From Macrostomum lignano (lineage: Eukaryota), in assembly GCA_002269645.1 (NCBI GenBank), contig NIVC01003641.1:22170-86169 (forward strand): a stretch of DNA of 64,000 nt, given 5' to 3'. Shown here piece by piece: positions 10,601-64,000 of this stretch (its first letter is position 1; the number at the start of each line of letters is the position of its first letter). A model generated the notes under the pieces. The model saw only the letters and a program-made list of their open reading frames with translations, had not been told where the DNA came from and searched no databases. Position numbers and translations under genes: made by a program.

Positions 10601-10952
10601 AGAAAAAGCGGAGAGAGCTTTGAACAACAAATCGATCAAAACGTGGTAAAGTTTTTAATAAAAATAAGTTTTCAAACAAAGGCAACAGAAACAAAGCAGT
10701 TAAGAATAGCGAAAGTGTGTGATTTTAAATCTGGAAAGACAATCGAACCTGCCACTCCACAATCACTCTGTTGTGAATTTGAAGCGATCATTTACAAAAT
10801 CTGTGCTATGTGATGCAGCATGTTGGAATGCAAAGTGCTTGTTAAAGTTAAAAATATACTTAAATTAAAAAACAACAAACTCTTAATGGTTGTTTAATGT
10901 AGATTTTTTTGAAATAGATTTGCAACAAAATATTATAGACTAAACAAACAAA

Positions 10953-21853: not shown

Positions 21854-22345
21854 TTAAACGGCCCTGGCAATTAAATACAGCAACAACAACGAGCCAGGCA
21901 GTAACACGTTATGCCTCAGTTGCAGTCGCCCCGCCGCATTGCAATAGTCTCCTTTGCAGTAGCACATCTCTGTAGTGCTTCCAGCGCCGTACAGCATGTG
22001 ACACCCGACGCCCATTGCTTTGGGAATCTCGGCGCAGTCGCGAGTGACCACAGTTGAAATGAGAGTCTCCGGAGCCCGCATGCCGACGCCCTCTCGGTCG
22101 ATGTGATACCGGTAGGAGCGGGTGACAATCTTCACGCAGCCGTCATAGTCGGCACCACCGCAGTCGGCCTGGTTGCTATCCGTGATACGAGCTTCTATTC
22201 CGCAGTAGCGCTTCAGAATCTCCGACTTGCTAGTGGTATCCAGGTTGCGCAAGTTCAACTCGAAATAGTTGTCGCAGGCTAAGCACTTTGACGCGCCGTT
22301 GCACCTGCCGCAGAGCTGCAGAAACAGCAGCAGCAGCAGCGGCAT
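21854..22345 (-). CDS. Ly6/uPAR three-finger, GPI-type protein (quiver/sleepless-like)
   Basis: Signal peptide MPLLLLLFLQLCGRCNG, 10 Cys from KCLAC to CYCKGDYCN, and a hydrophobic C-terminal tail. Acceptor tttgccag at 22374-22375 implies a 5'-UTR exon further upstream. Confidence 0.85.
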   Translation of the reverse strand: MPLLLLLFLQLCGRCNGASKCLACDNYFELNLRNLDTTSKSEILKRYCGIEARITDSNQADCGGADYDGCVKIVTRSYRYHIDREGVGMRAPETLISTVVTRDCAEIPKAMGVGCHMLYGAGSTTEMCYCKGDYCNAAGRLQLRHNVLLPGSLLLLYLIARAV

Positions 22346-22964
22346 CGGAGCTTTCGACAGCTTAAATTTCGGTCTGGCAAAGGCGGGCATAGCATGAAGA
22401 AACACGAATTCAACTATATTCAGATAGCTTGCCTTAGTTCCAGGTTTGCGCGGTGAAATTTGCAAAAAAATATTCAAAAGAGCAGGAAGTTCTTTATAAA
22501 CAGCTGAATTTACGAGAGGCATTTCTGGATGGGCGAGATCGCTCTCTACTTTTATAGTTGCTACCAATAAAAAACTGCGTCTTTCTCGGTTCGATCGCCC
22601 CTGCACTGCCATCCGGTCGTTATTCGACCACAAGCGCCGAGTGTTTAAGATCGCGTGTAGCTTCTTGTTCATACAGATGATCATGCACTCAACTGCATAC
22701 CTGGTTTGAGCTGTACTGGGCTACAGGTAAAGTTTGCTACATAAATGATACGCGGGGAAACTACATAAGCAGTGTAATTATGCAATAATTAGCTTAAAAG
22801 CCACCTGGGTGCTGTGCCATGCAGTTGTGCTGGCGAATTTACGCCTTTTACAACCAAAATTTTACCAAATTTCATCTTTTAATTTTTTCTTTAATTTTTC
22901 CTATATTACATTGCTTCTGATAAGTAAAGAGGTCTACATTCGTTCGTTTAGTTACTTCCGCAAT

Positions 22965-41015: not shown

Positions 41016-41937
41016 GAGGTTGCAGCTGGGTTGCTCTGACACAGGGCCTGGATCTCAAAGCGCATGTCAGTTATATGAAGACCTAGCAGCTTTCTTGCAA
41101 ATGGACTTTTAATCAATTTATCCAAGAGAATAAAATGAAGGCTGTTAACCCGTGAATTATATGCGCGTTTAGTTTTTACATGCTAAAATGTGGGCAACTA
41201 TTGGAGTGTTTACAGGTGTGCATGTCTTCTGAAGAGGGCAAGATGTCTATTTGGGGTAACATCCGTAACTACTAAAGAGGCCAAGGTATCTACTGAAGAG
41301 GTGACTTCACCTCGTTAGGTTAGGTGATGTGCGTCTTAGTTTGACCATAGACAACACTAATAAATGCTTATTTCGCGTGCGTCCTGCAATAAAGCACGAA
41401 AACAAGAAACTAAAAGCTATTTGTCTCGTCAAGCAACTATGGCTGAAGCGTCTCGTCAAACGCTTTTTAATTGAAAACATCTTGCTGTCGACGCCTTAAA
41501 CGGTGTGAATATGGGAGTTGTAATTTTTGTCTGAGCTTACCTTTTCGAACCATCATGATGACCAGGCGTTTGTCTGAATTCATTCACTGGCTGGAGAACG
41601 ACCGACGCAATGAAGACCCGTCGGAACTGCCGAAAATGGATGTCTCTGATGTGGATTTGAGTTCGACAATGGATAGCGTTGAGTTACAGTCATTGCCGAT
41701 ATCAACGGTTGAGCAGATAAATCGGTGTATTCGCTATCGAATCTCGTGTGTATCCGAGGATCTTTGGGAACTGCCTTTTTGAGAACTGTATATTTCACTT
41801 TGGGTGAGACATTGATTATCGCATCATCAAATTTCAACTACAAACTGATGAAGTGCACTGTGACATAATTTATCATGAACTCCTTTCGTGTAAATTGTTC
41901 TTTAGTTGTATTCATTTTTGCCCTTTTGTTCATTTAC

Positions 41938-43010
41938 TATACCTTTTCAACTTCGTATTCGTCAAAAGTGAGTTCAAATTCGTCAGCGTATGCAAAACTA
42001 TATGGCTAATCTATAAGAGAATTAGTGTCTATGGTAAATTTTTAGAGAAAGTGACTTCGAATTCGTCAAAGTAAGTGAAATTCGTCAGTGCAAATACAGC
42101 CTGATCAGAAAAAGTGTTTGCTTTGTCCATGGTAAGAAAAGAAGGTGTCTATGGTAAATTTAAGTAAGAAAGTGAGTGAATTTCGTCTGTGGAAAAGTAG
42201 CCCAATTTCTTGAAATCTTCATTTCATGCTTTGATTGTTGTCAGAGATGCCCTACATGAGAATTTCGTCTGTGGATCGCTCTAGACTCGTGCGATGTTTT
42301 CAACAAGGACGAGACTAGAGACAACTCGCAATTGAACTGGATATGAAGAGGACAACTGCCAGTGACATCATCAAGAGATATGTTGATGAGGGTAGGATTG
42401 ATCTTAACGCGAGTGGAGGTGCAGTGAGACTAAAGTTTTCTGAGGAGATGCTCGGGGCGTTGACCAGGTATGTGGAAGAGAAGCCGACTGTGACCCTCAA
42501 AGAAATGCAGCAAAAGCTTGTTGCAGATTTTCCTGCTGCTCCTGCTGTGACAACTCAGGCAATCAGTCGTCGGCTTGACGGGACTTTGTGCGTTACATTG
42601 ACTGTTTGTTGTCATGTAGGGCATCTCTGACAACAATCAAAGCATGAAATGAAGGTTTCAAGAAATTGGGCTACTTTCCACAGACGAAATTCACTCACTT
42701 TCTTACTTAAATTTACCATAGACACCTTCTTTTCTTACCATGGACAAAGCAAACACTTTTTCTGATTAGGCTGTATTTGCACTGACGAATTTTACTTACT
42801 TAGACGAATTGAGGAATGCCCCTTCTGCCTCTCCGGTGTTCAGAATGCGGAGCACTTTGTAAATGCTCCGCCTTTACTCAGGACAGGTCCAAACCCGGAC
42901 CGTTCCGACAGTTTCAGGCTCGAGAATTTCTGCCAGCTCGTCCGCTACCTTAGGGCAAAGGATGACGAATTTGAACTCACTTTTGAATAATCCGAAGTTT
43001 AATAGGTATA
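41938..43010. mobile_element. Foldback-like element with long inverted arms around a Tc1/IS630-type transposase fragment
   Basis: 42061-42259 is the reverse complement of 42612-42810, and 41938-41985 of 42963-43010. Internal aattcgtca subrepeats. The spacer ORF 42343-42610 (EEKPTVTLKEMQQKL..TTQAISRRLDG) resembles an IS630/Tc1 HTH. Confidence 0.7.
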
Positions 43011-44676: not shown

Positions 44677-47600
44677 GGGGCAACGGTCGAGCCCCTGGGA
44701 GCAGGAGAGGAAAATACCAAGACGGGGATTGGAATTGACACGAGAGCAGCAGGGGGTCAGCCTCCGCTAAGGCTGAAATGCGAAGGTAGTTGCCCATAAG
44801 AGAGAGAGGGAGATACTGTTATATTGAGGTGGCGGGCAGCCTTACTTTGCGTTAAATTCATTGTTCCGTTCGTGACTGCGTACAGGTAAAACAGATGATT
44901 ACTTGCCGAAATCCAAGCTCCAATACAAAGCCAGCAAATGGATATCTTGCATGCAACTGCAACCTGGATCTGATTGTTTTCCATCAAAGTTTTTATCTAA
45001 CAAACAAATATGCTCCACTAAAACTCATGACAATTGTTATGAAAGGATAATAAAGTATTGTATGCAACGTTAAAACATGAATAGCAACAATAGGTGAAGG
45101 TATTAATGTAGCAAGCAATGAGGAAACGAGCACGCACGTAAATATTGTAAAGCAGAAGACGGGGCGGGGCAGCCAGTCCACATGGACTATATGTTGTTGC
45201 ACAATCGACGCCAGGGAAAGCTAGTGAGTTGTCCAGCTGCTACGCCATAGATGTAATTCTCAGTTGAACAACACACTACCTCACCACTAGCCAATGATCG
45301 ATTCAATAATATAACTTAGCGTTGGCGTACAGGGAATTTCAAGGGAAAGTAGGGCTGAGTAAATCAAAATTAGGCCTACGAGAGGCTGGGCAGCATGTGA
45401 GCTTAAGAATAATAACCTAACTAAAATTATCGCGCTTTAAAACGCAACCTTTTTCTTTAATGAGCGAGACCTGTTCAGCCAGTAAAAAAGGCAAAGGCAA
45501 TCAAATTTGAAGAGAGGAACCGGCACCGGGGTCGGCGCGGGAGGAATCAGGCAAAATCAGAGAGGAGGACTCGCAGGTCCGGAGTTTGTTTAGCTTAAAA
45601 CTAGCTCGCAGTGAATGACGGGCCTCCTGCCACCGCTTTTCCGCTCTCTCGCTCTCCACTAGCAAATCCTTAATTCCAACAGCGCTGACGGCCCCAAAGT
45701 TAGGGGCTTTATAAAGTCCCCTAGCGGCCTGCTCGGGGCTGAAGGGACTTGCCATTGGGCTGGGAAAGGAAAAGGGGAAATGTGGCAGACAGGGACAGGA
45801 AGAGTTAGAGGGGAGGAAAGAGATCTGGGGGGAAGGAGAGGAGGTTGAATGGACGCCGCGAAGCAAATGGCTGCTTGGAGGCTAAAGCAGTACATTTATA
45901 GATAGAACCACAGAGCAGCTACCCCAAGCCTAATAGGCATGGCATTGGCTAAGAGCGGATCAAAATTCATTTCAACCCTCAACCCTTTCAGTGCTTCCCA
46001 TTGCCAGCAATTTATGCACGGCAGCGCGACTTGCCGGTTCTCTAGTCTTAATATATTCTAGGGAATCTAGCAGTGGCTGCATTGTGTGTGTGGAGTGAGG
46101 TTTACTGGCGGCGACTGTCAGCGCGAATAACACGGGGACAGAAAGACAGAACATTGGGATTGGGAAGAGAGTTCAAGAAACGACGAAGTGGCAAGGGAAA
46201 TTTCGGAAAACGGGACAAGGGGACAGATTTTGAAGGGAGGGTTTACCCCCGCCCCCGCTACACTGACGTCAGATTCTATTAATAAACCTAGAAGATGAAA
46301 CACGGAAAATATCAACCGTAATAAGCCGAAACGAGCTGGCAAAAAACTCACTTGAAAAAATACCTTGCGAATTCACTTCACCTGTCGGGGCTGTTCTTTG
46401 AAAAAATGTTGCCGCGCATTTACAATCAGGACCTAATAAAATGTCTGAAGGCTGAGGGAATCTGAAGGCTGAGGGAAAGGACACGTTGGATTTATTTGAG
46501 CGTCCTCCTGTTTCTCTTTCTATCTCTCGTCTGTGTGTTGTCCCCAATTGGTAAAAAAGCAGCCGCGTCCGGGGCACTCGTTTTATATTCTCAGACAAGC
46601 GCGGAGGGTGGGGCTACACCCCCACCCAGAGCTGACGCATACGGTACGGCCTTAACGGGGACCCAGACAGACAGACAGCCCTCACCACTCCAGCACCCTT
46701 TCTTCGCTTGCCTTCACAGCTTAGCGAAAAGCCGGGCCAGAGGGGTGAGGACTGAGGAGGGCGGCTGGGGGGCCCAGAACCCTAGGCGTATGCAAAAGAA
46801 GCGACGCCAGCCGGCAGGTAGAAAGCAAGAAGCCGAGAACGCCGGGGCCCTCGGGGCAGACTGAACCAGTGCGAAACGTCCAATTTTTCTTATAAACCGT
46901 CCAGGCCAGCGCCAATAACAAATACAATGCACAAGCTATATCTGTCACAGTCCACAGACAAGACCCCCGGTTAAACATTTTAAGCAGACTAAATTAACAA
47001 ACCGACAGACAGACAGAGGGACCCTACAGAGGGCCGAGACTAGTCCACAAAACAAAGTCCGTACGAGAGGGCCCACAAATCCAATCCAGACCCACGGCCC
47101 CTGGATCGTATTGCACATACTTTAGTATTATAGCATATACAACTTAGTCTAGTCGTGTCTTCTGCTTCTCCAAGGCCAAGACTATAAGGTATTATTAGCA
47201 GTGATTAACTACTTCTAGCTTTCCTCCAACAGCAGCGGGCTGTGTTGTGGTAGATGGCAAGTGCTAAAATTAGACAGTACTGGATGACGCAGGCTTTTTT
47301 ACTTTGAGAAAACACAAAAATGAAACTGAGGGTACATAAGTATCGGCATCAGGAAAAAATGACAATGGTTTAGGGACCTTTATCTGATTAATAGTCTATA
47401 TTATTATATACTACCCCCAGCCTCGACAGGGTACAGGACGTTCTACTGCTGCTCAGTGCTCACTAACCTAGGGTCCATATAGTTTAGCCTGCTAAGCGAC
47501 GCCGTTGGCTAGAAGGCTTGCTTGCGCTGCGGTGCGCCATCTGACGCACCCTGACCTCATGGCGTGGCTTTACTTATCTGGGTTGCTTATTTTGTTGCTG

Positions 47601-50373
47601 TTATATTATAGTCTAGACTAGACTGCTATAACAACTTTTTCGATAAAAGAACACTCATTGCTGCTGTGACTCACCCAGACGGACAAAGGGAGGGGCCAAG
47701 AGGCTTGCATTGCATTTGCTAATGTGCAGTGCAGACCAAGCTAGACAGTCTGCCTGTGCCCTTAGCGGTCGTTTGACGACCCAAACAGTGCAGGGGCAGC
47801 ACCCATGCACACGTTAGAATAGGAATGTCTAGGCCAGGTACGTAAAAAGGACAGTTTGCAAACACTTACTCATTTTAGACGACTTAGATTTTGTACATTA
47901 AAATACAAGGCGTCGAACCAGGAAAGTTTTTAGAGCAAACAGTTTATCAATTTTATCACGTTCTTATCTTGTGCTAAGAAGTTTATACAAAAAATTGACA
48001 TTCAAAGTCTAAATATCTATCCATATACTAAAAAGTCTAAAAATGACAAGGGTCTGCAATGCCAAAATTGCTGACAAAAAAGTGACTGCCAGCCAATTAA
48101 TCAGCAGTACAGGTACAGTTATGTACACAATGTATATACCGGTACTTATGACAGAACAGTAAACGATTTTCTGCCACTGCAAAAAACAACACAGAAGTCT
48201 AAGTCAACTGGTTGGATATGACCTAGTTCACAGGATACAAAGACTATAAAAGACCAAAACAAAAGAATTGCTTTGTCAAAATTTAGGTTCGAAAGTTCAA
48301 TTCATATGCTAATAAGTAGTATGGTTTGATGGCTCAGTTCATGAATATATAGAATCTAGATGAAATATTTTCCATTTGGTTTACAATAATGTTTACTGCC
48401 AGCAATCAACTGGTCTCTTTATAGAATCCTAGAGCCATGAATCTAGAAACTATACACTGACTTGTTTAATTGTAAACTAGGATAGCTTTATTAAATCCAT
48501 TTGAATTTTTATAATTGTTTCAACAATGTAATATATACTGATACCTATAGTAATATTTTCAAATTCCTACCAAATTTAACTAATTGCAAAGAAGCCTAGT
48601 TGACTGCAAGCCTTTAACCACTTCTGTACCTCAAGCCTCTGCACTCATTCTAAGAAAACCCATTGACTGCAGTAGCCAGACATCTGCGTCTGCCCACAAG
48701 CAGTCACAGCACTCACTCTTAGAAAACCCTAATAGCTGCAAAGTATTATCCATAGATTCAACCTAATGAGCTTGTGTATAAAAAAGTGTTGTTTATTTGA
48801 TGGCTGCTCTGTAGCCACAGTGGGTTTTCTCAGAGTAAGTGGCAAGGTGCCACTTGTGCTGGCCACAGACAGCTATTGTGGGCATTCAGCAGATGGCAGT
48901 TGGCTGCAGAGTAGCCAGCAGGTTTGAAGGTGTTAATAAGTGTATATTAGTAGAAAGTTAGCACAGAAATGCTCAGCAAGCTTGATTACAAGAAATTGTT
49001 CATCTGATATAGCAACCTATTTATTTTTGTCACTTGTTACTTATCTGTTACCCTGGTACCTGCTATTTCACTTTTAAAGGTTTTAAAGACTCGTTGATTA
49101 AAGAAGCTTTGTCACTAAGATAAGATATATTGATATCTAAGACCTAGAATTACTACAAAAGTGAATCCAAAATAGTTACTAAGTTATGACCTTTATTACT
49201 ATGCTTTGCAGATTGGTTAATAGAATTTCAAATATTAGATTTATCAGATTTTTATAATCTTGACTATTGCCAATTTTCCCTTTGAGATGCAAAATCTCTC
49301 TTGAGGTTAGTATTCTGCTATTTTAGTTCTTAGTAATGATGACTTTTTGGATGCTGTCTTTTTAGAAACCTTAGCCTTTAGGGTATTTTATTTCCAAGCT
49401 TTTTTATACTAATTCTAGGGTGAAAGGCAATTCTTGGAATTTTAGTTGGCTATATATTTCTATTAAGGTGCTTTTTAGGGTCTAAGAGTCTATCTAGCAA
49501 TGAAAGTCAAATATGATCATTTTTGGATTTTGGGAAAAAGATTAAGATGATTAATATATATTATACAAGCATATATACCTTTTAATTATAGATGTTATTT
49601 TTGTGTATAGATATATGCATGCAACATGATCTATGGCACCCTTGAACTGGCATATTGGCATATAAAAAACATATTTGTATATATGCCATGATTAATTTTT
49701 TTTGTATGTAAACCCTTGGCTTTTAGTTTATTAAGCCATTAGGCATTCTTTATCCCTTGGTCTCTTAGCCATATATGCCAGGATAGCCATATATGGCATA
49801 TATGGCATATATAGCCATATAGCCATATATATATCTATATACTAAAAATGGTCTGTCGGTATATGTGTGTGTGTGTGATCGATTTTAGCAAAAACGGCTT
49901 AACCGATTTTCTTCGAACTTGCACTGTTCAATCAGAAATTTTTCCGTGACGGTACATGCATCTTGGCTAAGAAATTGCTCAATATTAAAGGGATTAAATA
50001 TTCGAAAAACATGCTTTTTTGCAAAGGTCAAGCAGCTCTTTCGACTTGAAATGCATTGTAAGAATGCTAGCAGAAAAACTGACTGGTTGAATTCTGATTC
50101 TGAAATAGATTGCATCACAATACACTTTATTTATCGTCTGTGTACTGGCTGAATTTGACACACAATTGAATTGCGTCACAGCTTTGAGTGTGAAAGCATA
50201 GCGCAGTACTGAATTTATATTACGTAACCATATTGTTAACTTTCATAGACACTGGTACTGACTTGCCTAAGAAATTGATTATGTCATAACTGCTTCGTGT
50301 GACTTTTTACTCTACCTGACTTGGTGTGAGTGTTGAATTATATAAGTGGTACAAATTCACTGATAACTTCGAT

Positions 50374-50435
50374 GAGAGCTAGCCTAGAGCTGAACAGACC
50401 AGACTGCTAATGCAGCGACCTGGGTTCAAATCTAA
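50374..50435 (+). pseudogene. tRNA-like remnant inside the Helitron
   Basis: A-box-like tagcctagag, loop gactgctaat (as in tRNA-Ser GCU), B-box ggttcaaatc. The acceptor stem is not intact. Confidence 0.45.
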
Positions 50436-50524
50436 GTAGTTTAAAAGTAGTAGTGTAAATTTTTTTATTAAAAGGTTTTATTAATTAAAGGTTATTAATT
50501 AATTAATTAATTAAAATTAAACAC

Positions 50525-51635
50525 TTAGATTACTGCACTCGATAAGCCAAGGATTATTGCTATTAATAAACCAAAGACTACTGCACTCGATAAACCAAGG
50601 ACTATTGCTCTTGGCAAACCAAGGATTACTGCACTCAAGAAGCCAAGGATTATTGCTATTAATAAACCAAGGATTACTGCACTCGATAAACCAAGGACTA
50701 TTGCTCTTGGCAAACCAAGGATTACTGCACTCAAGAAGCCAAGGATTATTGCACTTGGAAAACCAAGGATTACTGCACTCGATAAACCAAGTACTATTGC
50801 ACTTGATAAACCAAGGATTATTGCACTTGATAGGCCAAGGATTACTGCACTTGATAAACCAAGGATTATTGCACTTGATAGGCCAAAGATTACTGCGCTT
50901 GATAAACCAAGGATTATTGGGCTTGATAAACCAAGGATTATTGCACTTGATAAGCCAAGGATTACTGCGCTTGATAAACCAAGGATTATTGCACTTGATA
51001 AACCAAGGATTATTGCTCTTGATAAACCAAGGATTATAGCACTTGATAAACCAAGGATTATTGCACTTGATAAGCCAAGGATTATTGCACTTGATAAACC
51101 AAGGACTATTTCACTTGATAAACCAAGGATTATTGCACTTGATAAACCAAGGATTATTTCACTTGATAAACCAAGGATTATTGCACTTGATAAGCCAAGG
51201 ATTATTGCACTCGATAAGCCAAGGATTATTGCTCTTAATAAACCAAGGATTACTGCACTTGGAAAACTAAGGATTACTGCACTCGATAAACCAAGGACTA
51301 TTGCACTTGATAAACCAAGGATTATTGCACTTGATAGGCCAAGGATTACTGCACTTGATAAACCAAGGATTATTGCACTTGATAGGCCAAGGATTATTGC
51401 ACTTGATAAGCCAAGGATTATTGCAGTTGATAAGCCAAGGATTATTGCACTTGATAAACCAAGGATTATTGCACTTGATAAACCAAGGATTATTGCACTT
51501 GATAAACCAAGGATTATTGCACTTGATAAACAAATATTGCACTTGATAAGCCAAGGATTACTGCGCTAGATAAACCAAGGATTATTGCACTTGATAAACC
51601 AAGGATTATTGCACTTGATAAACCAAGGATTATTG
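50525..51635. repeat. 24-bp minisatellite (gataaaccaaggattattgcactt)
   Basis: About 46 units inside the Helitron. Confidence 0.96.
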
Positions 51636-51769
51636 CATTAGCTGAGAAGCTGATTACTGCGCTGTCTAAAAAAGAGATTATTGCGCTCGCTGAGACGTGG
51701 ATTGTTGCACAACCTGAGAAAGCGATTATTGCATTAGCGGAAGTAACATTTGCACTAGCTACTTGCTGT

Positions 51770-52090
51770 CTCGTGGATGCTTGCTCTCGAGGGGGGATAC
51801 TTGCTATTTGGGAGAGGGGGTACTGGCTACATACATGGGATTCTTTCTATCCAGGGATGCTTGCTATCTGGGTGGATGCTTCTATAATATCTGGGGGGTG
51901 CTTGCTATCTGCAGGATGCTTCTATAATATCTGGGGGGTGCTTGCTATCTGCAGAATGCTTGCTATCTGGGTGGATGCTTGCTATCTGGGTGGATGCTTC
52001 TATAATATCTGGGGGGTGCTTGCTAATCTGCAGATGCTTGCTATCTGTGGTGATTCTTACTATGAGCATTAGAGGATGCTTGCTATCTGC
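51770..52090. repeat. ~19-bp degenerate repeat (tgcttgctatctgggtgga)
   Basis: Second array inside the same Helitron. Confidence 0.8.
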
Positions 52091-52559
52091 GATTGTTCAC
52101 TTTTGGAGGGGGTTGCTTGCTGTCTTGGGTATATTTTCTATTTAGGGAAACGATATTTTGTTGACTGTTTGTTAATTTTAGAGAAAAAGTGATTTTTTAA
52201 TTTTGCAAACATCTTAGTCCGTGACAATTTTACACGAATAAGGTGATTTTTAAAATGTGAAGAAGGAATTAGTGTTTAAGAAAATGTGTTTTTTTATTGT
52301 TTTCCATGAACTATTTTTGCTCCTTTCTTATTGGGCGCCCCGAAGGGGGGCCGCACTAGATTGCTAGTTATTATACTGTTATTATACTATTACTATTTAC
52401 ACTATTATATCATTATGCAAATGCTTTATAAAACTCATAACTTGAAGACTAGGGATTAAATTTCCAATCCTATTGGAACAATGTCTTTAAACAAGACATT
52501 TGACTGTATATTGTTTTAGTTTACTTAGCTATAATTTATTTAGACATCTATAAGAGATG

Positions 52560-53350
52560 CCTTCTTTGCCTATAAAGATGTCTATAAAAAAAGAGGCCTG
52601 CACATCTGCCAACAAAGCCTCTTTATAGAGCAACTCTAGAAGCATATATAGCTATAGCTGGCCTCTGTACATGTGTCTTCAAATAACAGCACTAGCCTTT
52701 GACCTTGTTGTTTGTCCATATGCTCTGCTTATTATGGATGCTAACATCTTTAATATTCCAAATCAGGGGGTCCAACCAAGTGGCTTTGATATATTTATAT
52801 ATGTGGTCCACCCATTGGTCCTACATTTGCTGCACCAAGTAGCCAAATGCTGTGTGAATGACTAGGCAAAAAAGGCAGCAAATTAACATTAGCTGCTTTA
52901 GAAAGTCTTTCACTGCCTAGTTGGTTGCAAACTATTAAACTATTTTAATCACTGTGTATTTGTATATGTATTGTCATATGAAAAATATAGCATTTATATA
53001 CCCTATTGCAGTCAATGACTATTATCTTGGATAATATTTAGAATAGATTGGCCTTCAGTAATATAGGTGTAGTTTGGTATGCTAGTGCAGTTTGGCATAG
53101 GAAAGAGGGTGTTTAATAAAATTTAGACCTTGGCTGCAATATGGTCTATATGTATACTTGCTTTTATATAGAATACATTGGGCTTTTTATATGTAGTATG
53201 CATATGCACCTTAAATTTACAGCCAGTTATAGTGACCAATGGCTAGATCTTGCAAACCATCTGTTATACAGCTGCTTCAAAGTCTAAGACAAGACTCCTA
53301 TAGCAACTAAGGTCTAAACCATGCCAGACACCTCTTTTGCCTTTTTTCTA
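52560..53350 (-). pseudogene. Hypermutated MULE (Mutator-like) transposase relic
   Basis: Minus-strand translation gives VLDFEAAV*QMVCKI*PLVTITGCKF (~53290-53215), LLPFLP (~52882-52864), and YIKATWLDPLIW...WTNNKVKG* (~52795-52692). These match the MULE motifs DFE.A..W..V...FP...I.GC.FH, ALPFLP, Y...TW and RTNN.VEGWH. Confidence 0.6.
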
Positions 53351-55001
53351 TACTAAATAACACTAGACTATGCCTATAGCTATACTACCAAGAGAATTTG
53401 CACTAAACACTGTCTACAATAATAGCAATGGCCATTGGCTGCAATAGGGTAGACTCTATGGTCCTAGCTATATTGCAAAGATATGCATATTACTTGTGTA
53501 TAAATGTACTACCTGAAGATATGTAACACTTTTGGCATGTTTTTACACAAATATAGGTATGGGAAGAGAATGATTATTCAATAGCCAAGATAATAGCGGC
53601 AATGATTTCTTTAGCCAAGAGTTTTAAAAAACAACAGTAGTCATAGATAAAGCAATTGAAACTGCAAAAAATGGAGTAAATTAGCATTCATATCTGTACT
53701 CCTACTTTCAAAATTCAGAAGTATTCAGAAAGTTGTAGCCATACTATTTATAAGTATACATACACACATACATACATGATATTACAAATGCAACTTTAAT
53801 AAACAATAAGACTGAAAACTATATAATCTTAATTAGTAGCAATAGCGAAGTTAGAATATAACTCTAAGATAAGTAAAAGATAAGAAGATAAGTAAAGATA
53901 AGTCTACATAAATATTAGCATAAGGAAAAATTAATTTGATTCAAGTTCTGAGCTACAATCTACTAGATTGGGCAATGACATATAAGACTATGCCCAAGTA
54001 TTTTTTGCCTAAAGTTCTAGAATTTCTAAGAAATACACTATCTAATCATAACAAATATTTTCTGTTTCTAGCCTAAAAGTGAACTATATATACTTTTTTG
54101 AGTTTTTTGTATTTTACAAGTTTTTATTATATATCCACATCCATACTATGCTGGACAAATAACTTCACTTTTATTTATCCAGTACCAGACAAATAATAAT
54201 TATGTTATTCATCCAATAACGAATAAATAGTCATTGCCTTTTATAAATGAAATTGCCTTAGACCTAATGTCTATTAAATTCAGATAAAAAATAATTACCA
54301 AGATTATTACCTAATATTGCCAAGAATGCTAGGCATATTATATGCCATATATACTATATATAGGCCCTATAAGGAAAATTCTTGCATCTTTTGACTATTA
54401 TTTATTATAAATGGCTCTTGTTTTGGCTATTATTTAAAAAAATAAATTATTATTTGAAAATATAAAACTTTTTGTACTGAGTCTAAGAATTGACAAAGGT
54501 TTCAATTTTAATTCTAAACTTTATTCATTATGTGAAGTGTAGAGTTCAATGCAAATATTGAAGGGCCTAGTCATTAGATAATTAATACTCAATGATATAA
54601 ACTGTATCTAGATACTCAACTTTATACATCTATATAGTACTAGTAGAAAGTACATAATATATTTTGATGCTAGATTTTGATAGCATTTAGGCTCACGAGA
54701 AATAAAAAAATAAAACTTTGTGAAAATTAGATATAACAATCACTTCTGGGATGTATGTACTCTGCTTGTTATGCAATCTTAGCTATAGTCTACTGTCTAT
54801 AGTATATATATTTAGTATATTTAAATTATCAGAAAAAGTAGACCATGTTTAAAAATGTTTTATGCACTTATATTGCTAAAATCTGCTCACAATCTAAACC
54901 TCTACCTCCATTGACATCCTTAATGTAGGCACATAGGAAATATGAATATAGCTTTACAGACAGACGGAGGGAGGCAGCTTGCACAGGCCTGGAGGATATT
55001 A

Positions 55002-55266
55002 GCCCTTTTCATATTACCGATTCTAGAACCAGAATCGGTTCGGAATTCCAAGAAAAACAGCAGTATTACTATTTAATTCTGTTGAATATTTGATTGCCTT
55101 AACATTAACAACCTCACTTAGCACAATTTTCCACTTTCTTCGTGGCGATGTCATTCAATAATATAAACTTTATAGCACGTATCTCCCTCTACTTATGGAG
55201 ACAAAAAGTTATACTTCACAAATTGGTTCTGGTTCTGGAACCAGAGCAAGCAATATGAAAAGGCCC
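55002..55266. mobile_element. MITE, PIF/Harbinger-like termini
   Basis: gcccttttcatatt ... aatatgaaaaggcc inverted termini, with inverted gaaccagaa/ttctggttc subterminal motifs. Confidence 0.45.
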
Positions 55267-56229
55267 CATAACGTGTGGACAGAAATTAATTTTGGTTAAC
55301 CCATGCGTGCCGATTGTAATAGCTCGTATTTACGTATAGATTAATACATATAACATTAATTGTTAAAAAAAATACATATAAGCCTTTTTTAAACAGTTTC
55401 TTGTCATACTAGATATAAAGCCACATTCATTTTGTTTAAACTGACAATTTTTAGCCCGCTTGGCAAGCCGTTTTTATTTTAAACTGACATCCGTCTCTGT
55501 ACTGAGCAGTCTGTAGAGCAGTCTGGTCTGGTGAGCAAACTGGTGAGCAGTCTGTAGACAAAAAACTAGTACTTGGTATTTCACACCTGACACCTCAATA
55601 AAACTTCTAGCAAAGTGATCGAGTGGATGGACATAAGGCGATTTAGACCAAAAGACAAATCAGGGAACCAGTTAATTCGGCGACAGCTGGTTGACTCGGC
55701 GACAGGCAATTCGGCGACAGTCAGTTCGGTGACATATGAGGGGGGAGGGTTTGAAACAGGGCGGTAATTTGTCATCCATTGCATTGAGTTTGCATGTTTA
55801 CTCCGATTTCAAAATAAGCCAAAGTGGTAAGCCTCACAGTCACCACACATATACATATATGCTTTTTCACGGTACTAGTCTCACCTGCTTAATGTTGAGA
55901 CAATAAGAACAATTGTTAAAGCGACTAAACATGAAAAATCTCGGTTGAATCGTATTTTATACTGAGTCTTTTATACACTGCACTTTTTGCTGCGAAAGTG
56001 TAGGATATATGCTGTATGCATTGTTTGTACATGCACAATGAACAAAAGAAACTCTAATTATGCAAGCTGAACTTCTAGAAATTTTCTTCGCAGCCAAACC
56101 CTCTGACACCATGATAAGAACAGTGAAGGAGTGTTCCATTCAAATGGTCATTCACAATGCGGCTAAAAAGTTGTAATATGCTACTTAAGGTTTTTTGTTA
56201 GCTCGCGCCAGTTATATCAATATAGCGCC

Positions 56230-56335
56230 TGTGGCGCCAAAATGAGTGCCTGTGGCGCTAGAATGAGTGCATGCGGCGCTAAAAGGAATTCCTGCGGCGC
56301 CAAAATGAGTGCCTGCGGCGCCAAAATGAGTGCCA
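56230..56335. repeat. ~22-bp short array (tgcggcgccaaaatgagtgcc)
   Basis: About 5 units. Confidence 0.75.
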
Positions 56336-57505
56336 CAATTTAGTCATGTAGATGTACCATGTCGAATTCTTGGCTTAATTTGTCCCCCCCCCACCATAAA
56401 ATCCATGGCGACGTCCCTGAGCATGTACATTATCTCATTTGGATTCAATCGATTGAGTTTTTTGTCTATTGTGTTGTGATGCATATTAACTCAATGCGCC
56501 GCAGAATGGTAGAGTAGAAATTGAAGTTGCATTCAGTTAATTTTTCAATGCTCGATTTTAATTGTGACAATATGGACCACTGCATTTGTGTGCAAGAAGA
56601 TAGTCACCAATGACTTGACTTACTTGACTTAGCTGCAGGGGGCGTCCGACGGATGCAGCGAGGAGGCGGAGGGGACCACCCATTCCGCTAGCCCCTGGCG
56701 ACCAGGCCAATGACTTCCGTTGAAGTGATTTCGCTCAGGGGGACCCGTCGGTCTCGCCTGCAGCGCGGTCCTCCTCACCGACGGTGGAGAAGAAATCAGC
56801 TCGTCCCGTGTCCCTGAGGTACCGGGCGAGCAGCGGGATGCTCTCGGGCCTGCAAACGTCGGAGAGAACCGGGTTTGGCCCGAGGTGAGTGAACCTGGCC
56901 TTGTTGTGAAGACAGGGCAGTGGCAGATAAAGTGCTCGGCATTTTCACTGCCTGAGCGGCAGAAGGGGCACCGCTCCTCGGGTACTTGGCCCTGAAGGAA
57001 CCGGTGGCGAGAGAAGCAGCCATACCCGGAGAGGGCCATGCTAACTGCTCTGAGGTGTCTGCGGTTGAGCCTGAGGAGGGCTCTACGCAGGAGAGGGTAG
57101 GGGCAGGGGACGGCCGCACGGGATTGCCTACAATTCCGGGTGTCGTGCCACCTGCGGAGATGCTCGGAGTCAGTCCAGCGCTTAACGCGGGAGTTGATCA
57201 CCGAGGCGGGGATGGGGGCTCCCGGGCCTGGCCCTAACAGCGCGCCGGCGGAGCCAGCCTTGGCCAGCAGGTCAGCGCGCTCGTTGCCGAGGAAACCGCG
57301 TGGCCCGGGATCCATCTGAGCTCCACCTGGTTGCCTAGCGCAAGCCCGTTGAGCTGGGTGTTGCAGTCCAGGACGGACCTGGAGCTGGTGTTGCTGCGGC
57401 AGAGGGCCCGAAGGGCTGCTTGGCTGTCAGAGTGAAAAATAAATTTCCGACCGCTAAGCTGCCTTCGGCGCAGCTCTGCCGCGCAGGAGCTGATGGCAAG
57501 CACCT

Positions 57506-57541
57506 TGTTGGGGTTGTACTTTGGTTTTTCATGTTGTTTCA

Positions 57542-57588
<47 letters not shown>

Positions 57589-57818
57589 CCGTGACTGATC
57601 ATTCTTGCGCGCTATCGTTTTACCCCTACCTGTGTACATTTGTGCTTGCCAGTGTGCATGGTTTTAACCCCCAGCCAATCGGATGGCGTTTGTCTACTAA
57701 TGTACGTGGATTCGTGTTATGTAGTCAAATAAATACTTTCGTCACTTCGGTAGAGATCTTTCAATGGTATTCTCCTTCGCTTGCAAACATGACTTGACTC
57801 AGTTTTCCTAGACTAACA
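57506..57818 (+). repeat. 5' LTR (313 bp)
   Basis: TGTTGG...CTAACA termini, internal (CT)n, CCAAT and AATAAA. Followed 3 nt later by the PBS. Confidence 0.85.
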
Positions 57819-57821
57819 TTT

Positions 57822-57839
57822 TGGCGTCGCAAGCAGGAT
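57822..57839 (+). promoter_or_regulatory. Primer-binding site, probably tRNA-Ser
   Basis: TGGCGTCGCAAGCAGGAT. Its complement ends AUCCUGC..ACG-CCA, like the tRNA-Ser T-stem and acceptor. Confidence 0.65.
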
Positions 57840-57840
57840 A

Positions 57841-60800
57841 ATGAGCACCAAATTGAAAGAGACGCTGCCGTTGAGCAACATAGATGAGCTTCGCGCCTGG
57901 GTTGAAGTATTTGACGCCCAGGCCAGATCCAAAGGAGTCGAAGATACCGACGAGAGACGAGCGTTGACCGACGCTTTCATGGGCTGCCTCGGGGTCGCTG
58001 AGCTCATAAAAGTCAAGCAGCTGGTTGCTCCAAAAACCCCGTCTGAGATGAAATGGTCTGAAATCAAGCAATGCCTACTGACGTTTGTGGAGCCCAAGAA
58101 GAAACTGCAGATCGCTAAGAGGACAGCCTTCATGTCTATGCGCCAGGCCGAAGGCGAAACCGTCACCAGCTATGCCGCTCGTCTCAGGGAGCAAGCCGTC
58201 GTATGCGAGTTCGAGAGCCTGAAAAAGGAAGGAGCGGACCCCGCCGAAGCGCTCATCAAGATGCGGCTCATTGCCGGTCTGGCCAACTGACATCACGTTC
58301 AGGAACAAGGTGCTCGAACGTGAAGTGACTCAAGAACTGACGGTCGATCAGGTCACAGAATATGTTCAGCAGCTGCTGATGGTCAGCAACTTTTCAGCTG
58401 GGTCCCTGGCTGCTGCTCACTCGACTCTCGTGGATTCGGTGGTGCACCAGGCTAGGTCGCTGTCAACCGCGGGTCTGACTACGGCTAATGAAGCTCACTG
58501 CCATCCGGATAGCTCCGGCTCTGCCAACGTTAATTCGGTTATGAGGCAGAAGCAGAACTTCGGACACCAGCGCTGTCAGCGTTGCGGGTTGAGATCGCAC
58601 CAGAAGCCCGCTGACTGCCGAGCCCTGAGAGCCACCTGCAATCAATGTGGAAAGCCTGGCCACTTTGCCCGTGTGTGCCGCGGTGCCAGGACCCACTTCG
58701 CTGCCCCAGCTGAAGCAGTCCGCACTCAGCTGAGTCCAGAAGACTCCTATTGTGATGAGCCCGTATTCTACTGTGGAGAAGGAAAGCCTGCCGAGTTCTG
58801 CACTGTGAAAATCAATCACAGAGAAGTGCTGATGGAGAAGGACAGCGGTGCCTCCTGCTCGTTAATCTCACGAAGGATCTGGAATGAGCTCGGAAGGCCC
58901 CCGCTGAAGTCGGCGAAGTCGCGCATGCTGGCGTATGACGGACACGTTATGAGACAGATGGGCGTTCTGGAATGCCTGGTGGAGACCACTGGCAACAACG
59001 GCCGCTTCAAGGCGGCAGAGCTGCCCGTCATCGATTGCCAACAGGAGTTTAGGCTGCTCGGCCGGAATCTGCTGGTCCTCGCACCGGTGCACCATGCCAG
59101 TTCTGATGAGTCAGCCGCCAGCAACAGGTATGAGAGCTTGTTGGGAATATCTGGTGCTACGGGAGAGATCCGTCTTTGTGCTGGAGCTAAGCCAATTTTC
59201 CAGGCAGCCAGAGAACTGCCCTTAGCGCTGAAGCACTTGGTTAAGAAGGAGCTGGACTTGATGGAAAGTGCTGGAATCGTTGAGAAGGTGATGTCGTCGG
59301 AAAGGGGCAGTCCAATTGTGGTGACGGTGAAGTCAGATCGGGCATCCGTGAGAATTTGTGGAGATTATTCGGCTGTTAATCGGTTGGTTCAAGACCAGAC
59401 CGAACCTCACTCCCTCGATTGAGACAGCCTTTTCGAAAATGGCCAACAAGAAGCTGTTCTGTCGGTTAGACCTATCGGATGCGTACTATCAGGTTCCCCT
59501 GGATGAGGAATCGAAAGCGGTGACCACCATAAACACTCCGTTTGGTTGCTACAGGTTTAACCGGTTGCCGTATGGCATTAAGGTGTCGCCATCTGTTTTT
59601 CAACGTGTGATGGAAAAGCTCCTGGGAGACCATCCATGTGTCATAGTATATCAGGACGATGTGCTGATCGGTGCTGCGAGCCGGGCAGAGTTGCAGAAAA
59701 TTAGGGAGCAGGTGCTCAACAAGTTAAAGGCCGCAAATGTCAAGATCAACGAAGCGAAGTGCGTGATGGAGGCCAACAGCCTGAAGTTTCTTGGTCACAT
59801 TATTGATGATGAAGGAATAAAACCCGATCCGGGCATGGTGAAACGTGTGATGGATGTCAAGGTGCCGAAGACCAAGAAAAATTTGGAGAGATTTCTAGGA
59901 CTGGCTCAATTTTATGGACGGCTGGTTCCAAACTTTTCTGAGAAATGTCGGCCTCTTCAGGAGCTTCGCCGCGGTGACCGGGTCTTTGAATGGAACGCGG
60001 TGGCTGAGGCGGCATTTTCGGAGGTCAAAAGGAGTCTGGCCTCAAACCCGTGCATCAAGCCGTTGGATGTTTCCGCGCCTGTCTGTCTTCGAGTTGATGC
60101 GAGCGAGAGTCCTTGGGCGCGGTGCTGGTCCAGTCTGGACATCCCGTCATGTTCATGTCCAGGGCGCTCACACAGGCAGAAACCAACTACTCAAACATCG
60201 AGAGAGAAGCGCTGGCTATTGTTTGGACGGTTGAACGAGCTCGGAAAATGTTGCTATGGAAGAAATTCATTCTGCAGACCGATCACGAGCCTTTGAAGTT
60301 TATTCTGAATCCTTGCAATGAATCTTCCAAAGACTGTTTCTGCCAGACTAACCCGGTGGGCTCTGCGGCTATCGGCTTATGATTACGAGATTGAATATGT
60401 GCCGGGAAAGAAGATGCAGGATGCTGACGCTCTATCAAGGCTGAGCTTTGAAAACCTCGATCCTGAGACGGAGTCGGTTCACCAGACTGAGTTGATCACT
60501 GACGGAGGCTTGGTTACCGTGGAGGAGCTGAGAGAAAGTACTTCCCGGTGTTCACTGCTTTAAAGACTCCAGCAGAGAATCAGGACAGGCCGGTGGGGTC
60601 AGGTCTCTCAGCTGGAGCGGCCGTACAAAGCGTGTCGGGAAGCGTTGTCTGTGGAAAACGGGCTGGTCATCCACGGTACCAGGGTGGTGCCTCCGATCAT
60701 TCTCCGGCGGCGCATTTTGGAGACCGCGCATGATGAGGTGCACCCGAGCGCGGAAAATACGAAGGCCCATGTGTCTAAGGAGTTCTGGTGGCCTGGACTG

Positions 60801-61750
60801 GTTCGCGATGTCCGTCAGTTTGTTGAGCGGTGTCAGCTGTGCGCTGAAAGACGGCCGGTGGTTCAGCGGAAAATTGACATCTGGCCATCCGAGAGCGAGC
60901 CGTGGTCCTGGGTCCACATGGACCACTGTGAGGTGCCAGGAGTGGGCTTGCTACTGTTGCTGTCTGATGCATACTCGGGTTGGCCAGAAGCTGTCCAGGT
61001 CCCAGACAGGTCTGCGGGCAGTGTGCTGAGAGTGCTGAGAGCGGTGTTCGCCAGAAATGGAGTGCTTCGGACGCTAGTGTCGGATAATGCGCCTGAGTTC
61101 AGGTCGGAAAGAGTCTCGCAGTGGCTGAACAGTGTCGGCTACCAGGAGATGCACACCCCACCGTACCATCCGGCATCGAACGGGCAGGCTGAGCGGTTGG
61201 TGAGGAGTCTCAAAGGCGGGCTGAAGACGTGGACGAAAGTGTCCCATTTGACCAGTTCCTGCAGAATTTGCTTCTAACCATTCGCACCAGCAGGCCTAGC
61301 GGGAATCGTTCCAGTTCGCCGGACATTCTCATGTGGGGACGCCGGCTGCGCCATCCGCTGACGATTACCGAGCAGGTGGGTGATTCCATCTGGCTGAGGG
61401 CTCGGCCTGGCACGGCTCCGGTTCCGGCCAAGTTCATCGTGCAGCACGGCCGGAACACAGCTCTGGTGACCTCAGCTGACCTACCAGATGGTGGACTGCG
61501 GATGGCGCACGCAAACCAATGGAGCTGCCGCCTGGAGGCGGAGGCCGATCGGCGGCTGACCGAGGCGGCTGGATCCGAGGATCAGGCTGGGCTATCGATT
61601 CATCTGGGTGCCAAGGCTGGCTCTGACTCGGAGCTGCGTGAACCTGAGGTGACTGACTGTGACTCCCGGCTGAGTTCTGGAGATGAGACTTTCCAGCCCC
61701 ACAGCTCGTATGATTTGCGGCCTCGTAAACCTGTTTGTTATAAGGTCTAA
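57841..61750 (+). pseudogene. Frameshifted gag-pol
   Basis: Gag with two Cys/His knuckles (CQRC, CNQCGKPGHFARVC), protease (KDSGAS), RT (LDLSDAYYQ, YQDD), RNase H (DAS, YSNIEREAL), integrase (HDEVH..CQLC, MDH, VSDNAPEF, SNGQAER). About 7 frame changes. Confidence 0.9.
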
Positions 61751-64000
61751 GGATTGGTTTTGGTTTTTTTTGTATTTTGTTTTTCTACTTTTGGGGGAGC
61801 ACACCTCGCTCTGAAAAACACTTGAGTTGAGCCCAGTGTGCTGGGAGTAGCTCCACACCACTTCTCCCTTGAAGAAGACGCAAGCTCCGAAGCCTGAAAG
61901 ACAATGCCTCATAGAGCCGTCAGTGTAACAGTGGAATTCAGAATCGCTCCAGCTGTCACTCGCCTCGTGTCGAGGCTGAATAGTGACCTTATACCTTTGG
62001 CTTAGGAGAAGGGTGGCTGGGATCGAGTCCGTGAGGATGTTGAGCCCGCCACACTCCTCGAGAGCCTTGAGGCAGAGGTCAGAGTGCGGGAAAAGCGACT
62101 GCTTCTTAAAGGCCCGCACTTTCTTGAAGGCCACCCCAGCATCTAGAAGACGCCGGGTGCTCTTCGCCACCTCCTTTGATATAAATATCCAGAGGAGGGG
62201 CACAGAGGAAGGCATTCTTGCCTTCAAAAGGAGTAGAGGGTGGAGCGCCCAGAGTCATGCGGCAAGTTCTGCCCTGGATTTTGTAAAAGAGCGTCGAGGT
62301 TGCTTTTGACGCTCAGGCCGCTGGCCCACACGAGGCTGGCGTAACTGACCGAGGGCGGATGATGGCAGTGTAAATCCACCACAGCTTCCTGGGGGTGAGC
62401 CCCCAGGTGGTGCCTACGGCGCGCCTGATCTGAGCCAGGACAGCCAGGGCTTTTTTAGCTTTAGTTTGATGTGCGGAGTCCAGTTAAGCCTGTGGTCCAG
62501 AGTGAGGCCCAGGCAGCGGACCTGCTTCTCCATGGAAATATCCTTTCCATAGAGGGTGAGGCGCCTAATGGTACAGAGCAGTTTGTTGGTAAACATGACC
62601 GCTGTGGTTTTCGACTCTGAGAGTCTAAGGCCACATTGGTTTGCCCAACGCTCCGCTCGTCCCAGAAAGCCCTGCAGAAGATCTCTGATGGTATCAACCG
62701 AGGGGCCCGCACATATCGCGGTCACATCGTCGCCATAGCCCACCTTGAGAATGGGGTCGTGGAGATCACTGCAAAGCAGCTCATCCATGACCATGTTCCA
62801 GAGAACGGGGGTGAGAACTCCGCCCTGGGGGCCCCCTTTCTGGACAGGCGCCGAAAGAGAGCTGCCGTTCAGGTGGGCCACAACAGTGCGGTTCCGGATC
62901 ATGAACATGATCCACCGGACAAGGCGAGGGTGCGTGGCCCTGGATTCCAGGGCTCTGCAAAAGGCCTCGAAGATGACGTTGTCGAAGGCCCCCTCAATGT
63001 CCAGGAAAAGCGAGAGGGCAAAACCGCTGCCAAGAACGGCCCTCTCCAGGAAGTCAACAATGACATGGAGGGCACTCTCGGTAGACCTGCCCGCGCGGAA
63101 AGCGTGCTGGTTCTGCGAGAGTGGGAAGCGCTTCAGCTCGACCGAAAGTAGGCGCCAAAGCACCAGTCTCTCGAGGAGCTTAAGGCAGAAGGAGGTGAGG
63201 CTGATAGGCCTGAAGGCCTTCACCGATTGGTAGTCGCTCTTTCCAGGCTTGGGGATAAAGACCACCCAAGGCCTCTCTCCACGCAACTGGTACATAGCCC
63301 AGCTCCACACAAGCTCGGAGGAGACGACAGAGGAGGTCCAGGAAGCGGTGGTATTTTACCGCCTCGTGCAAGAACGCTGGGTAGATGCTATCGGGCCTTG
63401 AACGGGTTAAAGGACCTTGCCGCTCTAATAATGCGGTCTTTGGTGATCATAGACTTTGCTAGGTCTTGCCCTCCCATGGTTTGGTCAGGCGGGCCCTGCT
63501 TTCGCCTGAGAGCAGGGGGCCCTGCTTTCGCCTTGGCCCTGCTGAGTCGGAGATTTAGGGAAGAAACTGTTGAGTATTAGCTCTAGAGTCTCTTCAGATC
63601 TCTCTGTGACCGAGCCATCAGGTCTCTTCACAACAGAGAGTTTAGAAAAACGGTCATTGGTGAGTGCCTTAACCACGCGGGCTACGGGGCGGGAGCCCTC
63701 CAGCCCTTCGCAATAGGCCTCTCTATCAGATGGGTCTTTGGTTTTGAGCGCTCGCCTTTGGAGGGTCCTGGTTCGGCGCCGAAGGGACCCGAGCTCTGGG
63801 TTCCACCAGGGAGCAGATTTCTTGCCTTTGTAGGCTTCTAGAGGGCATGCTGCTTCAAAGTCAGTGGTGATCGCCCCGCCCAGGGAGGAGGCAAGATCAT
63901 CCACCACCTGGCAGTCAGATAGGTCACTGGGGGGGGGTCAAGATCCCGAAGGCCTCGGCTCAGCTTCGAGCAAAGGCGGCCCAATCGGAATTTCTGACGT

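Follow-up and report, generated by a model that had tools for sequence, protein, structure and literature searches.

In vertebrates and in some invertebrates, methylated transposons decay from CpG to TpG and CpA with age, and a hypermutation known from basidiomycetes strongly prefers a T on the 5' side of CpG. The stretch of DNA presented here, referred to as the window, comprises 64,000 nucleotides of the flatworm Macrostomum lignano (G000:C3641:22170-86169) and carries, at positions 48170-54960, a domain from which almost every CpG has disappeared, interrupted by a young Helitron-type insertion. A sister copy of the domain lies on contig C37, and similar domains, termed voids below, occur elsewhere in the genome. 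The reading that we favour, with moderate confidence, is that voids are zones of methylation decay associated with the 5' ends of conserved transcription units.

As set out in PMC7074731 and PMC9246332, repeat-induced point mutation (RIP) of fungi is triggered by duplication (repeats over 400 bp) independently of location and transcription, prefers (A/T)pCp(A/T), and needs RID or DIM-2. In holometabolous insects, according to PMC4419788, the methylation mark occupies the 5' region of active, conserved genes just downstream of the start site, with CpG depletion as its footprint. PMC13345969 describes germline methylation of Nematostella as being restored fastest at 5' ends, where H3K79me2/3 peaks, and as suppressing spurious initiation from transposons inside transcription units. 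For Macrostomum lignano itself, excerpts of reviews give 5-methylcytosine (5mC) as low and its pattern as unknown, and passages of PMC5730564 and PMC12801592 hold nothing on CpG. A literature search returned no description of zones such as those reported here; it did not cover the 2015 genome paper with bisulfite data, which may bear on the claim. The excerpt of PMC8629364 provides the spliced leader sequence of the species and the YTNCAG acceptor motif, and states that 30% of the genes are trans-spliced, mostly conserved and neoblast genes.

The left part of the void (48170-49833, 33% GC) contains 3 CpG (at 48290, 48687 and 49092), an observed/expected ratio (o/e) of 0.066, and the right part (52368-54960, 30% GC) contains 4 (o/e 0.069), with none at all between 52368 and 53596. 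Even the segment 48580-48930, at 46% GC, has a single CpG. In total, 7 CpG stand against 103.6 expected (o/e 0.07), or against 68.4 if the window's own o/e of 0.66 is applied (Poisson p 3e-21); the remaining window has an o/e of 0.66-0.77. The borders are abrupt, the last CpGs on the left lying at 48140 and 48164 and those on the right resuming at 54965. The original prediction, made by eye, had reported about 3, none and about 4 CpG in these intervals, a nearly CpG-free GC-rich segment and sharp limits, and the exact recount agrees on each point. It had also called TpA conspicuous, which is true in a milder form: TpA o/e is 1.00 and 1.13 in the two void parts and 0.71-0.85 in three AT-rich controls, but the left flank has 1.02. 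The (CpA+TpG)/(ApC+GpT) index is 1.36 in the void as against 1.10-1.17 in the controls, a rise that fits CpG decay and is the opposite of CpA-directed RIP. AT-richness alone is ruled out as the cause, and the CpG content of the void is lower than that of much other AT-rich DNA: among 168 scored windows below 35% GC, 39 have an o/e below 0.15 and 68 an o/e of 0.75 or more.

The void is composed of at least three unrelated repeat relics and of DNA that matched no repeat in the sequences compared. Its components and flanks are as follows.

46200-48169, no strand assigned: left flank, single-copy host DNA with ordinary CpG; its matches are the C37 sister copy and one 80-bp repeat.
48613-48940, no strand assigned: relic of family A, a TTAA-bounded dispersed repeat with 72-bp subrepeats.
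49834-52367, plus strand: Helitron-type insertion, non-autonomous and very young, with a TC start, a GC-rich hairpin and a CTAG end, in a target between A and T.
52594-53297, minus strand: relic of family C, Mutator-like (MULE) transposase fragments.
53957-54254, no strand assigned: relic of family B, a short dispersed repeat with internal inverted copies.
55004-64000, no strand assigned: right flank, a high-copy short repeat (55004-55270) and then a minus-strand long interspersed nuclear element (LINE) with a nested Gypsy element; CpG o/e 0.59-1.0.

The MULE assignment of family C is weak (Pfam E 0.003, below the cut-off, plus a CxFH motif seen by eye). The presence of three unrelated families and unmatched DNA rules out a single decayed element. 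The earlier proposal of a process aimed at 'this element' is therefore not supported, all the more as same-family copies elsewhere keep all of their CpG. Its description of the neighbours as LINEs and long terminal repeat elements with ordinary CpG is correct for the right flank, while the left flank is single-copy host DNA.

Each relic can be compared with its own family. The window copy of family A keeps 1 of 12 ancestral CpG columns, as against 4-9 of 11-12 in 11 other copies. Relative to L064, a CpG-intact copy of family C, the window relic has lost all 26 of 26 CpG; C-to-T changes affect 20/63 CpA, 9/53 CpT and 6/41 CpC, T-to-C changes 12/179 sites and transversions 30/388. The family B relic retains none of the 10 ancestral CpG of the family majority and shows CpA-to-TpA at 8/28 sites, T-to-C at 0/150 and one transversion in 216 sites; most of the 16 other family B copies are eroded too. 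That a directional C-to-T process has affected this domain much more strongly than the LINE and Gypsy DNA beside it, as had been predicted, agrees with these family comparisons, and the predicted CpA-to-TpA change is present as a second tier, as the 20/63 sites of the MULE relic and the 8/28 of family B show.

The sister domain (C37:338212-342468) is 99.8% identical, with just 6 substitutions inside the domain, and lacks the Helitron, having a clean empty site between A and T. The void is thus one contiguous block of about 4.2 kb and the erosion is older than the insertion; both this sequence of events and the Helitron borders at 49834 and 52367 had been predicted correctly. The prediction of ordinary CpG in the Helitron applies to its 5' part (o/e 0.81), but the o/e is 0.45 overall and the element is too young to prove an exemption. 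It holds an internal 24-bp array at 50528-51637. Its family is large and young: 40 of 3420 search candidates were scored, the copies are 95-99% identical, and 20 copies have 0-4 of 34-36 CpG sites changed, so that a young high-copy family is not eroded. The 5' part differs from its closest relative by one CpG and one CpA transition. As a gauge of ongoing erosion or exemption the Helitron was rejected because of its youth (private CpG changes at 0/30 sites in the 3' part). Differences between the sister copies show CpG transitions at 23/88 sites in CpG-poor context versus 106/4776 in normal context; as proof of ongoing erosion they were set aside, since new CpGs arising from TpG could give about half of them. 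No third copy of the void domain was found, although the neighbouring gene with NHL and B-box domains (see below) has three copies. Helitron copies also occur as head-to-tail tandems (C244, C3342).

The effect of position was analysed on copies of like age. All-against-all BLAST of 1.34 Mb of masked, de-duplicated loci gave 2906 usable alignments, of which 754 had at most 3% transversions and at least 8 reference CpG; 138 were non-redundant, and the 98 with a normal-flanked reference were used. Median CpG loss was 0.61 for void-flanked copies, 19/26 of which had lost 30% or more, versus 0.08 for normal-flanked copies (1/61; Fisher p 2e-12). Copies with intermediate flanks had a median loss of 0.08, with 3/11 at 30% or more. 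Transversions in the compared pairs were 1.2-1.5%. Within family C, copies at about 1% T-to-C and 1-2% transversions keep 69/71, 15/15, 18/26, 9/12, 10/17 and 22/41 of their CpG, further copies of the same age keep 13/31, 16/51, 9/30, 10/34 and 5/22, and older ones keep 0/40 and 0/26; the strongly eroded copies mostly adjoin CpG-empty DNA. From L064 to L063, 35/51 CpG were lost at T-to-C 4/634. Erosion is set by the location of a copy and not by its repeat family.

The process is directional, context-dependent and acts on both strands, in the order CpG, far ahead of CpA and CpT, which are about equal, and then CpC. Pooled over 339 CpG, 150 were kept, 83 became TG, 83 CA and 12 TA. With shared changes removed, 36 void pairs give rates of 0.30 (CG), 0.043 (CA), 0.043 (CT) and 0.018 (CC), with T-to-C at 0.008-0.014, and 85 normal pairs give 0.035, 0.015, 0.015 and 0.020. 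The spectrum is therefore far from context-free. Non-CpG C-to-T changes in voids are raised about 3-fold at CpA and CpT and not at CpC, and the rise stays without the family B references (39/900 and 46/799, CpC 10/461). An apparent DNMT3B-like preference for CAG (33/360) was dropped, since it fell to 15/238 without those references and CTG and CTA were equally high. One short tandem array in a void (L206 before 2237; C37:511800-512200) has TACAG units on the gene-distal side and TACGG units on the gene-proximal side, a gradient that looks like CpG decay caught along the array.

With regard to RIP, as it is described for Neurospora and other ascomycetes in the papers cited above, the void shares C-to-T change on both strands, falling GC, raised TpA and ruined transposon relics. 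The trigger, context and enzyme features of RIP, however, all fail here, and the RIP-like hypermutation of the original prediction is not upheld. Location decides in this genome, voids following the 5' side of host genes and not the copy number of repeats, and high-copy repeats such as the 3420-candidate Helitron family are spared. CpG is the main target (0.30, versus 0.043 for both CpA and CpT) and the index of 1.36 is not depleted. No methyltransferase of RID/Masc1 or DIM-2 type was found among the 12 PF00145 matches in the genome, the enzymes being DNMT1 and DNMT3. The graded loss across copies argues for a slow process and against the burst that RIP produces in a single premeiotic passage. 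Nor is there the preceding-base preference of the basidiomycete process: TCG (68/173) is not set apart from ACG (42/124), CCG (23/72) and GCG (30/96).

Voids were sought in 960 kb of contigs C37, C1 and C10, as 1291 windows of non-tandem DNA. CpG o/e is bimodal over these, with a small mode below 0.1 and a main mode near 0.85. Voids make up 37.7 of 646 kb of non-tandem DNA (about 6%); typical zones measure 1-4 kb and 8 reach at least 2 kb. The domain of the window is the top scorer of the scan, though the C37 sample was centred on it. Gene starts were taken from a codon model trained on this genome's exons together with Pfam names, without external annotation. A void lies within 4 kb upstream of 13/78 coding clusters, downstream of 2/76 (p 0.005 for upstream versus downstream) and inside 0/64; one of the 13 clusters is the Gypsy element adjoining the window domain. 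Among 14 merged voids, host exons within 4 kb show a 5'-only arrangement in 10, both in 2 and none in 2, so that 12 of the 14 are situated directly 5' of a host coding exon, compared with 18 5'-only, 20 both, 12 none and 27 3'-only among 77 AT-rich, CpG-normal controls (p 0.0008). Several voids sit between divergent genes, and void edges often coincide with younger insertions.

The neighbours named by Pfam are EF-Tu, a Ras-family GTPase, Elongin A, EB1, 5'-nucleotidase, NIF phosphatase and the NHL/B-box gene; malate dehydrogenase, PRKCSH and an Arf GTPase, on loci fetched for other reasons, also lie beside voids. By their Pfam matches, most of these neighbours would count as housekeeping genes, and voids are absent from receptor or channel genes. 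DNMT1 and TDG have a void directly upstream and exons that keep CpG (coding-exon o/e of 0.99 and 0.81, with 0.90 for UNG). Some first coding exons are themselves CpG-poor.

Trans-splicing links one void to an outron, the discarded 5' segment of a trans-spliced transcript. On C37, the NHL/B-box gene, which we take to be brat-like, starts 16.5 kb from the sister of the window domain and has a void of its own at 321751-323300. In four runs, contigs are spliced across the first intron of this gene. Runs X5 and X2 come from two studies, and in each of them the transcript contig terminates at L046:1754, where the void ends, with the 3' part of the published spliced leader. Depth drops there from 32-43 to 4-12, and low-depth contigs continue through the void; as the runs were only guessed to be RNA, this cover may be DNA and is weak evidence, whereas the leader junction is strong. 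The features of an outron, with a leader at an unpaired acceptor on the 3' edge of the void, are thus found at this gene (X5 and X2, with an acceptor AG allele in X6). At L046:1751-1754 (G000:C37:321751-321754), the assembly reads CATG, the last four letters of the leader, where X6 contigs show the acceptor AG; the difference may be allelic or a leader-contaminated assembly correction. By eye, an acceptor-like AG also stands immediately before the first CpGs of DNMT1, Elongin A and EF-Tu. Inspection by eye of the far void edges revealed no common promoter motif.

In the window, the corresponding candidates are:

29895-35074, minus strand: closest coding gene of the host on the left side, a receptor-type tyrosine phosphatase that starts with the ATG at 35074, 13 kb from the void, and is read away from it; candidate owner of the domain.
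48177-48191, minus strand: candidate splice-acceptor-like motif, U-tract plus YTNCAG, at the left void edge.
54953-54959, plus strand: candidate splice-acceptor-like motif, YTNCAG, at the right void edge, 6 bp before the first CpG.

The two edge motifs were picked post hoc and the motif is common. The window domain lies 5' of both neighbours, the phosphatase and the NHL/B-box gene. It may be a 5' zone whose first exon is non-coding or has escaped annotation; alternatively, it could be an orphaned piece of the 5' zone of either gene, severed by later insertions.

The genome contains the enzymes that DNA methylation would need. The 12 PF00145 (DNA_methylase) matches fall into three locus groups, DNMT1, DNMT2 and DNMT3, with three copies each; group representatives match DNMT1 and DNMT3 structures and the third group reads as DNMT2 by eye. 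The search was made exon by exon and could miss a divergent gene. The DNMT1 exon matches a protein of Macrostomum lignano at 99% identity, and the next match reaches 64%. Reading frames appear intact in the exons seen. The DNMT3 (P0125, gene on G000:C305, L262-L263) has intact ADD and catalytic domains. A PWWP domain gives no Pfam match in it even at E 5, with 59 PWWP matches elsewhere in the genome; residues 136-214 align weakly to the PWWP of DNMT3A/B, with SWWP read as S-YP, so that the F and the first W of the GFSWWP motif, which form the methyl-lysine cage, are replaced or missing. In DNMT1 (P0001, P0002; G000:C112, L258-L261) no CXXC match was found, unlike in the leech control and in most of the animal DNMT1 proteins compared. 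TDG, UNG and TET genes are present, and the finding of TDG and UNG rules out lost G:T repair as the cause. TDG has at least three paralog groups (L170-L176) and TET two, each in up to three copies.

The CpG transitions are symmetric, which points to 5mC, and germline or stem-cell deamination of 5mC is likely to have turned nearly every CpG of the voids into TpG or CpA; the zones probably mark outron or promoter-proximal DNA. In the mechanism proposed, the zones would be methylated at present, DNMT3 laying the mark with some non-CG spill, which the weaker CpA and CpT excess would fit, and DNMT1 maintaining it. With a degenerate PWWP, DNMT3 would no longer follow H3K36me3 along gene bodies, leaving coding bodies bare, and a 5'-biased cue such as H3K79me2/3 could place the mark in the first few kilobases of the transcription unit, which in trans-spliced genes would be the outron. 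The mark may silence transposons that land in the zone and could start spurious transcripts, CpG decay being a by-product; as the outron does not stay in the message, such decay could go on until it is complete. It is further proposed that the global 5mC level is low because the targets have mostly been mutated away.

The pattern would resemble the 5'-biased gene methylation of invertebrates without its exon depletion. As in the insects of the source cited above, it concerns the 5' region of conserved genes and leaves CpG depletion as a footprint. The footprint here, however, is mostly before the coding exons, in AT-rich DNA littered with transposons and, at one gene, in the outron; coding exons have an o/e near 1, the depletion is near-total (0.07) and non-CpG C-to-T change is raised. 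With invertebrate gene-body methylation in general it shares DNMT1, DNMT3 and symmetric CpG transitions (83 TG and 83 CA of 339), but the usual depletion of exons and introns fails, with voids inside 0/64 clusters and only some first exons poor in CpG. The same count, and a DNMT3 whose PWWP looks degenerate, separate it from the whole-gene-body methylation that the Nematostella excerpt describes. Inserted elements lose CpG with age as vertebrate transposons do, yet only about 6% of the sampled DNA is affected, in sharply bounded zones of 1-4 kb near gene starts. If so, sequence alone would predict where the mark lies, in short zones 5' of conserved genes and neither in coding exons nor in repeat families. 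Such a layout would invert the CpG-island arrangement of vertebrates. In free-living flatworms it would be a methylation pattern that still has to be mapped; it would also provide a natural test of DNMT3 PWWP function in animals, and it may help to locate the promoters of trans-spliced genes in a stem-cell model that is open to transgenesis.

Several observations weigh against methylation decay at 5' ends. The void-gene link rests on 960 kb and scattered loci, and a codon model trained on CpG-rich exons misses CpG-poor first exons, so that 'upstream' partly means 'first exons'. Thirty loci of the Ras family, which represent about 11 genes and stem for the most part from a tandem expansion, have no void in the 1.5 kb upstream save one short patch, UNG has none within 8 kb, and seven void-bearing 10-kb stretches (L267-L271, L275 and L276) contain no host coding open reading frame (ORF). 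The window domain is itself among the 2 of 14 voids with no host exon closer than 4 kb; coding starts first appear at distances of 13 kb and 16.5 kb, and erosion is absent from the LINE and Gypsy elements toward the NHL/B-box gene, which means that the zone either is local or had been separated before these elements arrived. Trans-splicing was examined at one void only. Families B and C, both selected for their likeness to the window domain, supply most of the void-flanked pairs, and the remaining pairs, from about 5 other families, go in the same direction with more scatter. The mammalian CpG deamination ratio is about 30-fold; here, the cytosine of CpG changes at a rate of 0.41, a 27-fold multiple of the pairwise transversion rate (54-fold per lineage), and together with the 3-fold rise of non-CpG C-to-T this is at or above plain mammalian deamination.

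Other explanations share some of this evidence. The methylated zones could precede the start site and so be no part of the transcript, serving as a border mark that separates active promoter from transposon DNA and decays by deamination in the same way; maize mCHH islands are a comparable border mark. The absence of a CpG-rich, promoter-like gap in the 4.2-kb void and of a strand skew that would show the direction of transcription, as well as the voids between divergent genes, would suit such a mark. It is nevertheless unlikely, because the NHL/B-box void ends at a trans-splice site, which places the start of transcription upstream, inside or beyond the void, and because some first coding exons are CpG-poor. 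A second alternative is that small RNAs, for example, direct methylation to old relics of DNA transposons, from which it spreads into nearby DNA, the gene link resulting from insertion near open promoters. This is suggested by the relics in the window domain and several other voids, by the erosion of most other family B copies, by the lack of a gene within 4 kb of the window domain and by the Helitron flanks: about 7/27 copies have CpG-poor DNA downstream, above the 6% share of voids, and the family may prefer or persist in voids. Same-family copies of equal age, however, keep or lose CpG according to their flanks, unmatched sequence and first exons are eroded, and LINE, Gypsy and Helitron DNA is spared, which makes relic targeting quite unlikely.

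An active, enzyme-driven C-to-T mutator analogous to RIP, through a methyltransferase or a TET/TDG cycle and faster than spontaneous deamination, would account for losses as one-sided as those of the window family B relic and of L063, and lost repair cannot explain the rate with TDG and UNG present; TET genes are there as well. It appears improbable nonetheless: there is no dependence on repeats, the loss is graded from 0 to 100% and not in bursts, the pooled rate is within about two-fold of the mammalian ratio, the 12 DNA_methylase matches are DNMT1, DNMT2 and DNMT3 groups by their representatives, and no APOBEC_N match was found in the genome (a weak test, of one family). In the version of this idea that is directed at outrons, a re-wired DNMT3 with a dead PWWP, a DNMT1 without CXXC and perhaps TET/TDG cycling would run the mutator, a scenario to which we give little credence. 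If true, transposons between promoter and trans-splice site would be destroyed within about 1% neutral divergence, and the outrons of stem-cell and housekeeping genes would be hit, trans-splicing dropping the damaged DNA from the message. Finally, the voids could be fossils of an earlier, more methylated genome in which later insertions keep their CpG, as the younger insertions at void edges and the uneroded Helitron would suggest. Young copies (about 1% T-to-C) inserted in voids have already lost 40-80% of their CpG, the methyltransferase frames look intact, and old single-copy DNA and coding exons elsewhere keep CpG; this makes fossils highly improbable.

Some further features were recorded in passing. 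Loci L280-L306 (C540, C686, C1849, C3617, C3792) contain a tandem expansion of intronless Rac/Rho-like GTPase genes. In the right flank, the Gypsy element at 57817-61750 (protease, reverse transcriptase and integrase, in broken frames) lies inside an RNase H-bearing LINE at 56629-64000 on the opposite strand. A 31-bp satellite of 127 copies occupies window positions 10949-14898; its unit has no CpG, hence an o/e of 0, and it is far shorter in the sister copy. At 21854-22720 (minus strand) a single long ORF encodes DUF5746 and Quiver/Ly6 domains, with a second, inverted copy about 40 kb away on the sister contig (C37 near 413106-413588). G000:C2900:67280-68147 is a 100% match to window positions 41500-42366 that ends inside a miniature inverted-repeat transposable element, and is possibly a third copy of the locus, differently built towards the void.

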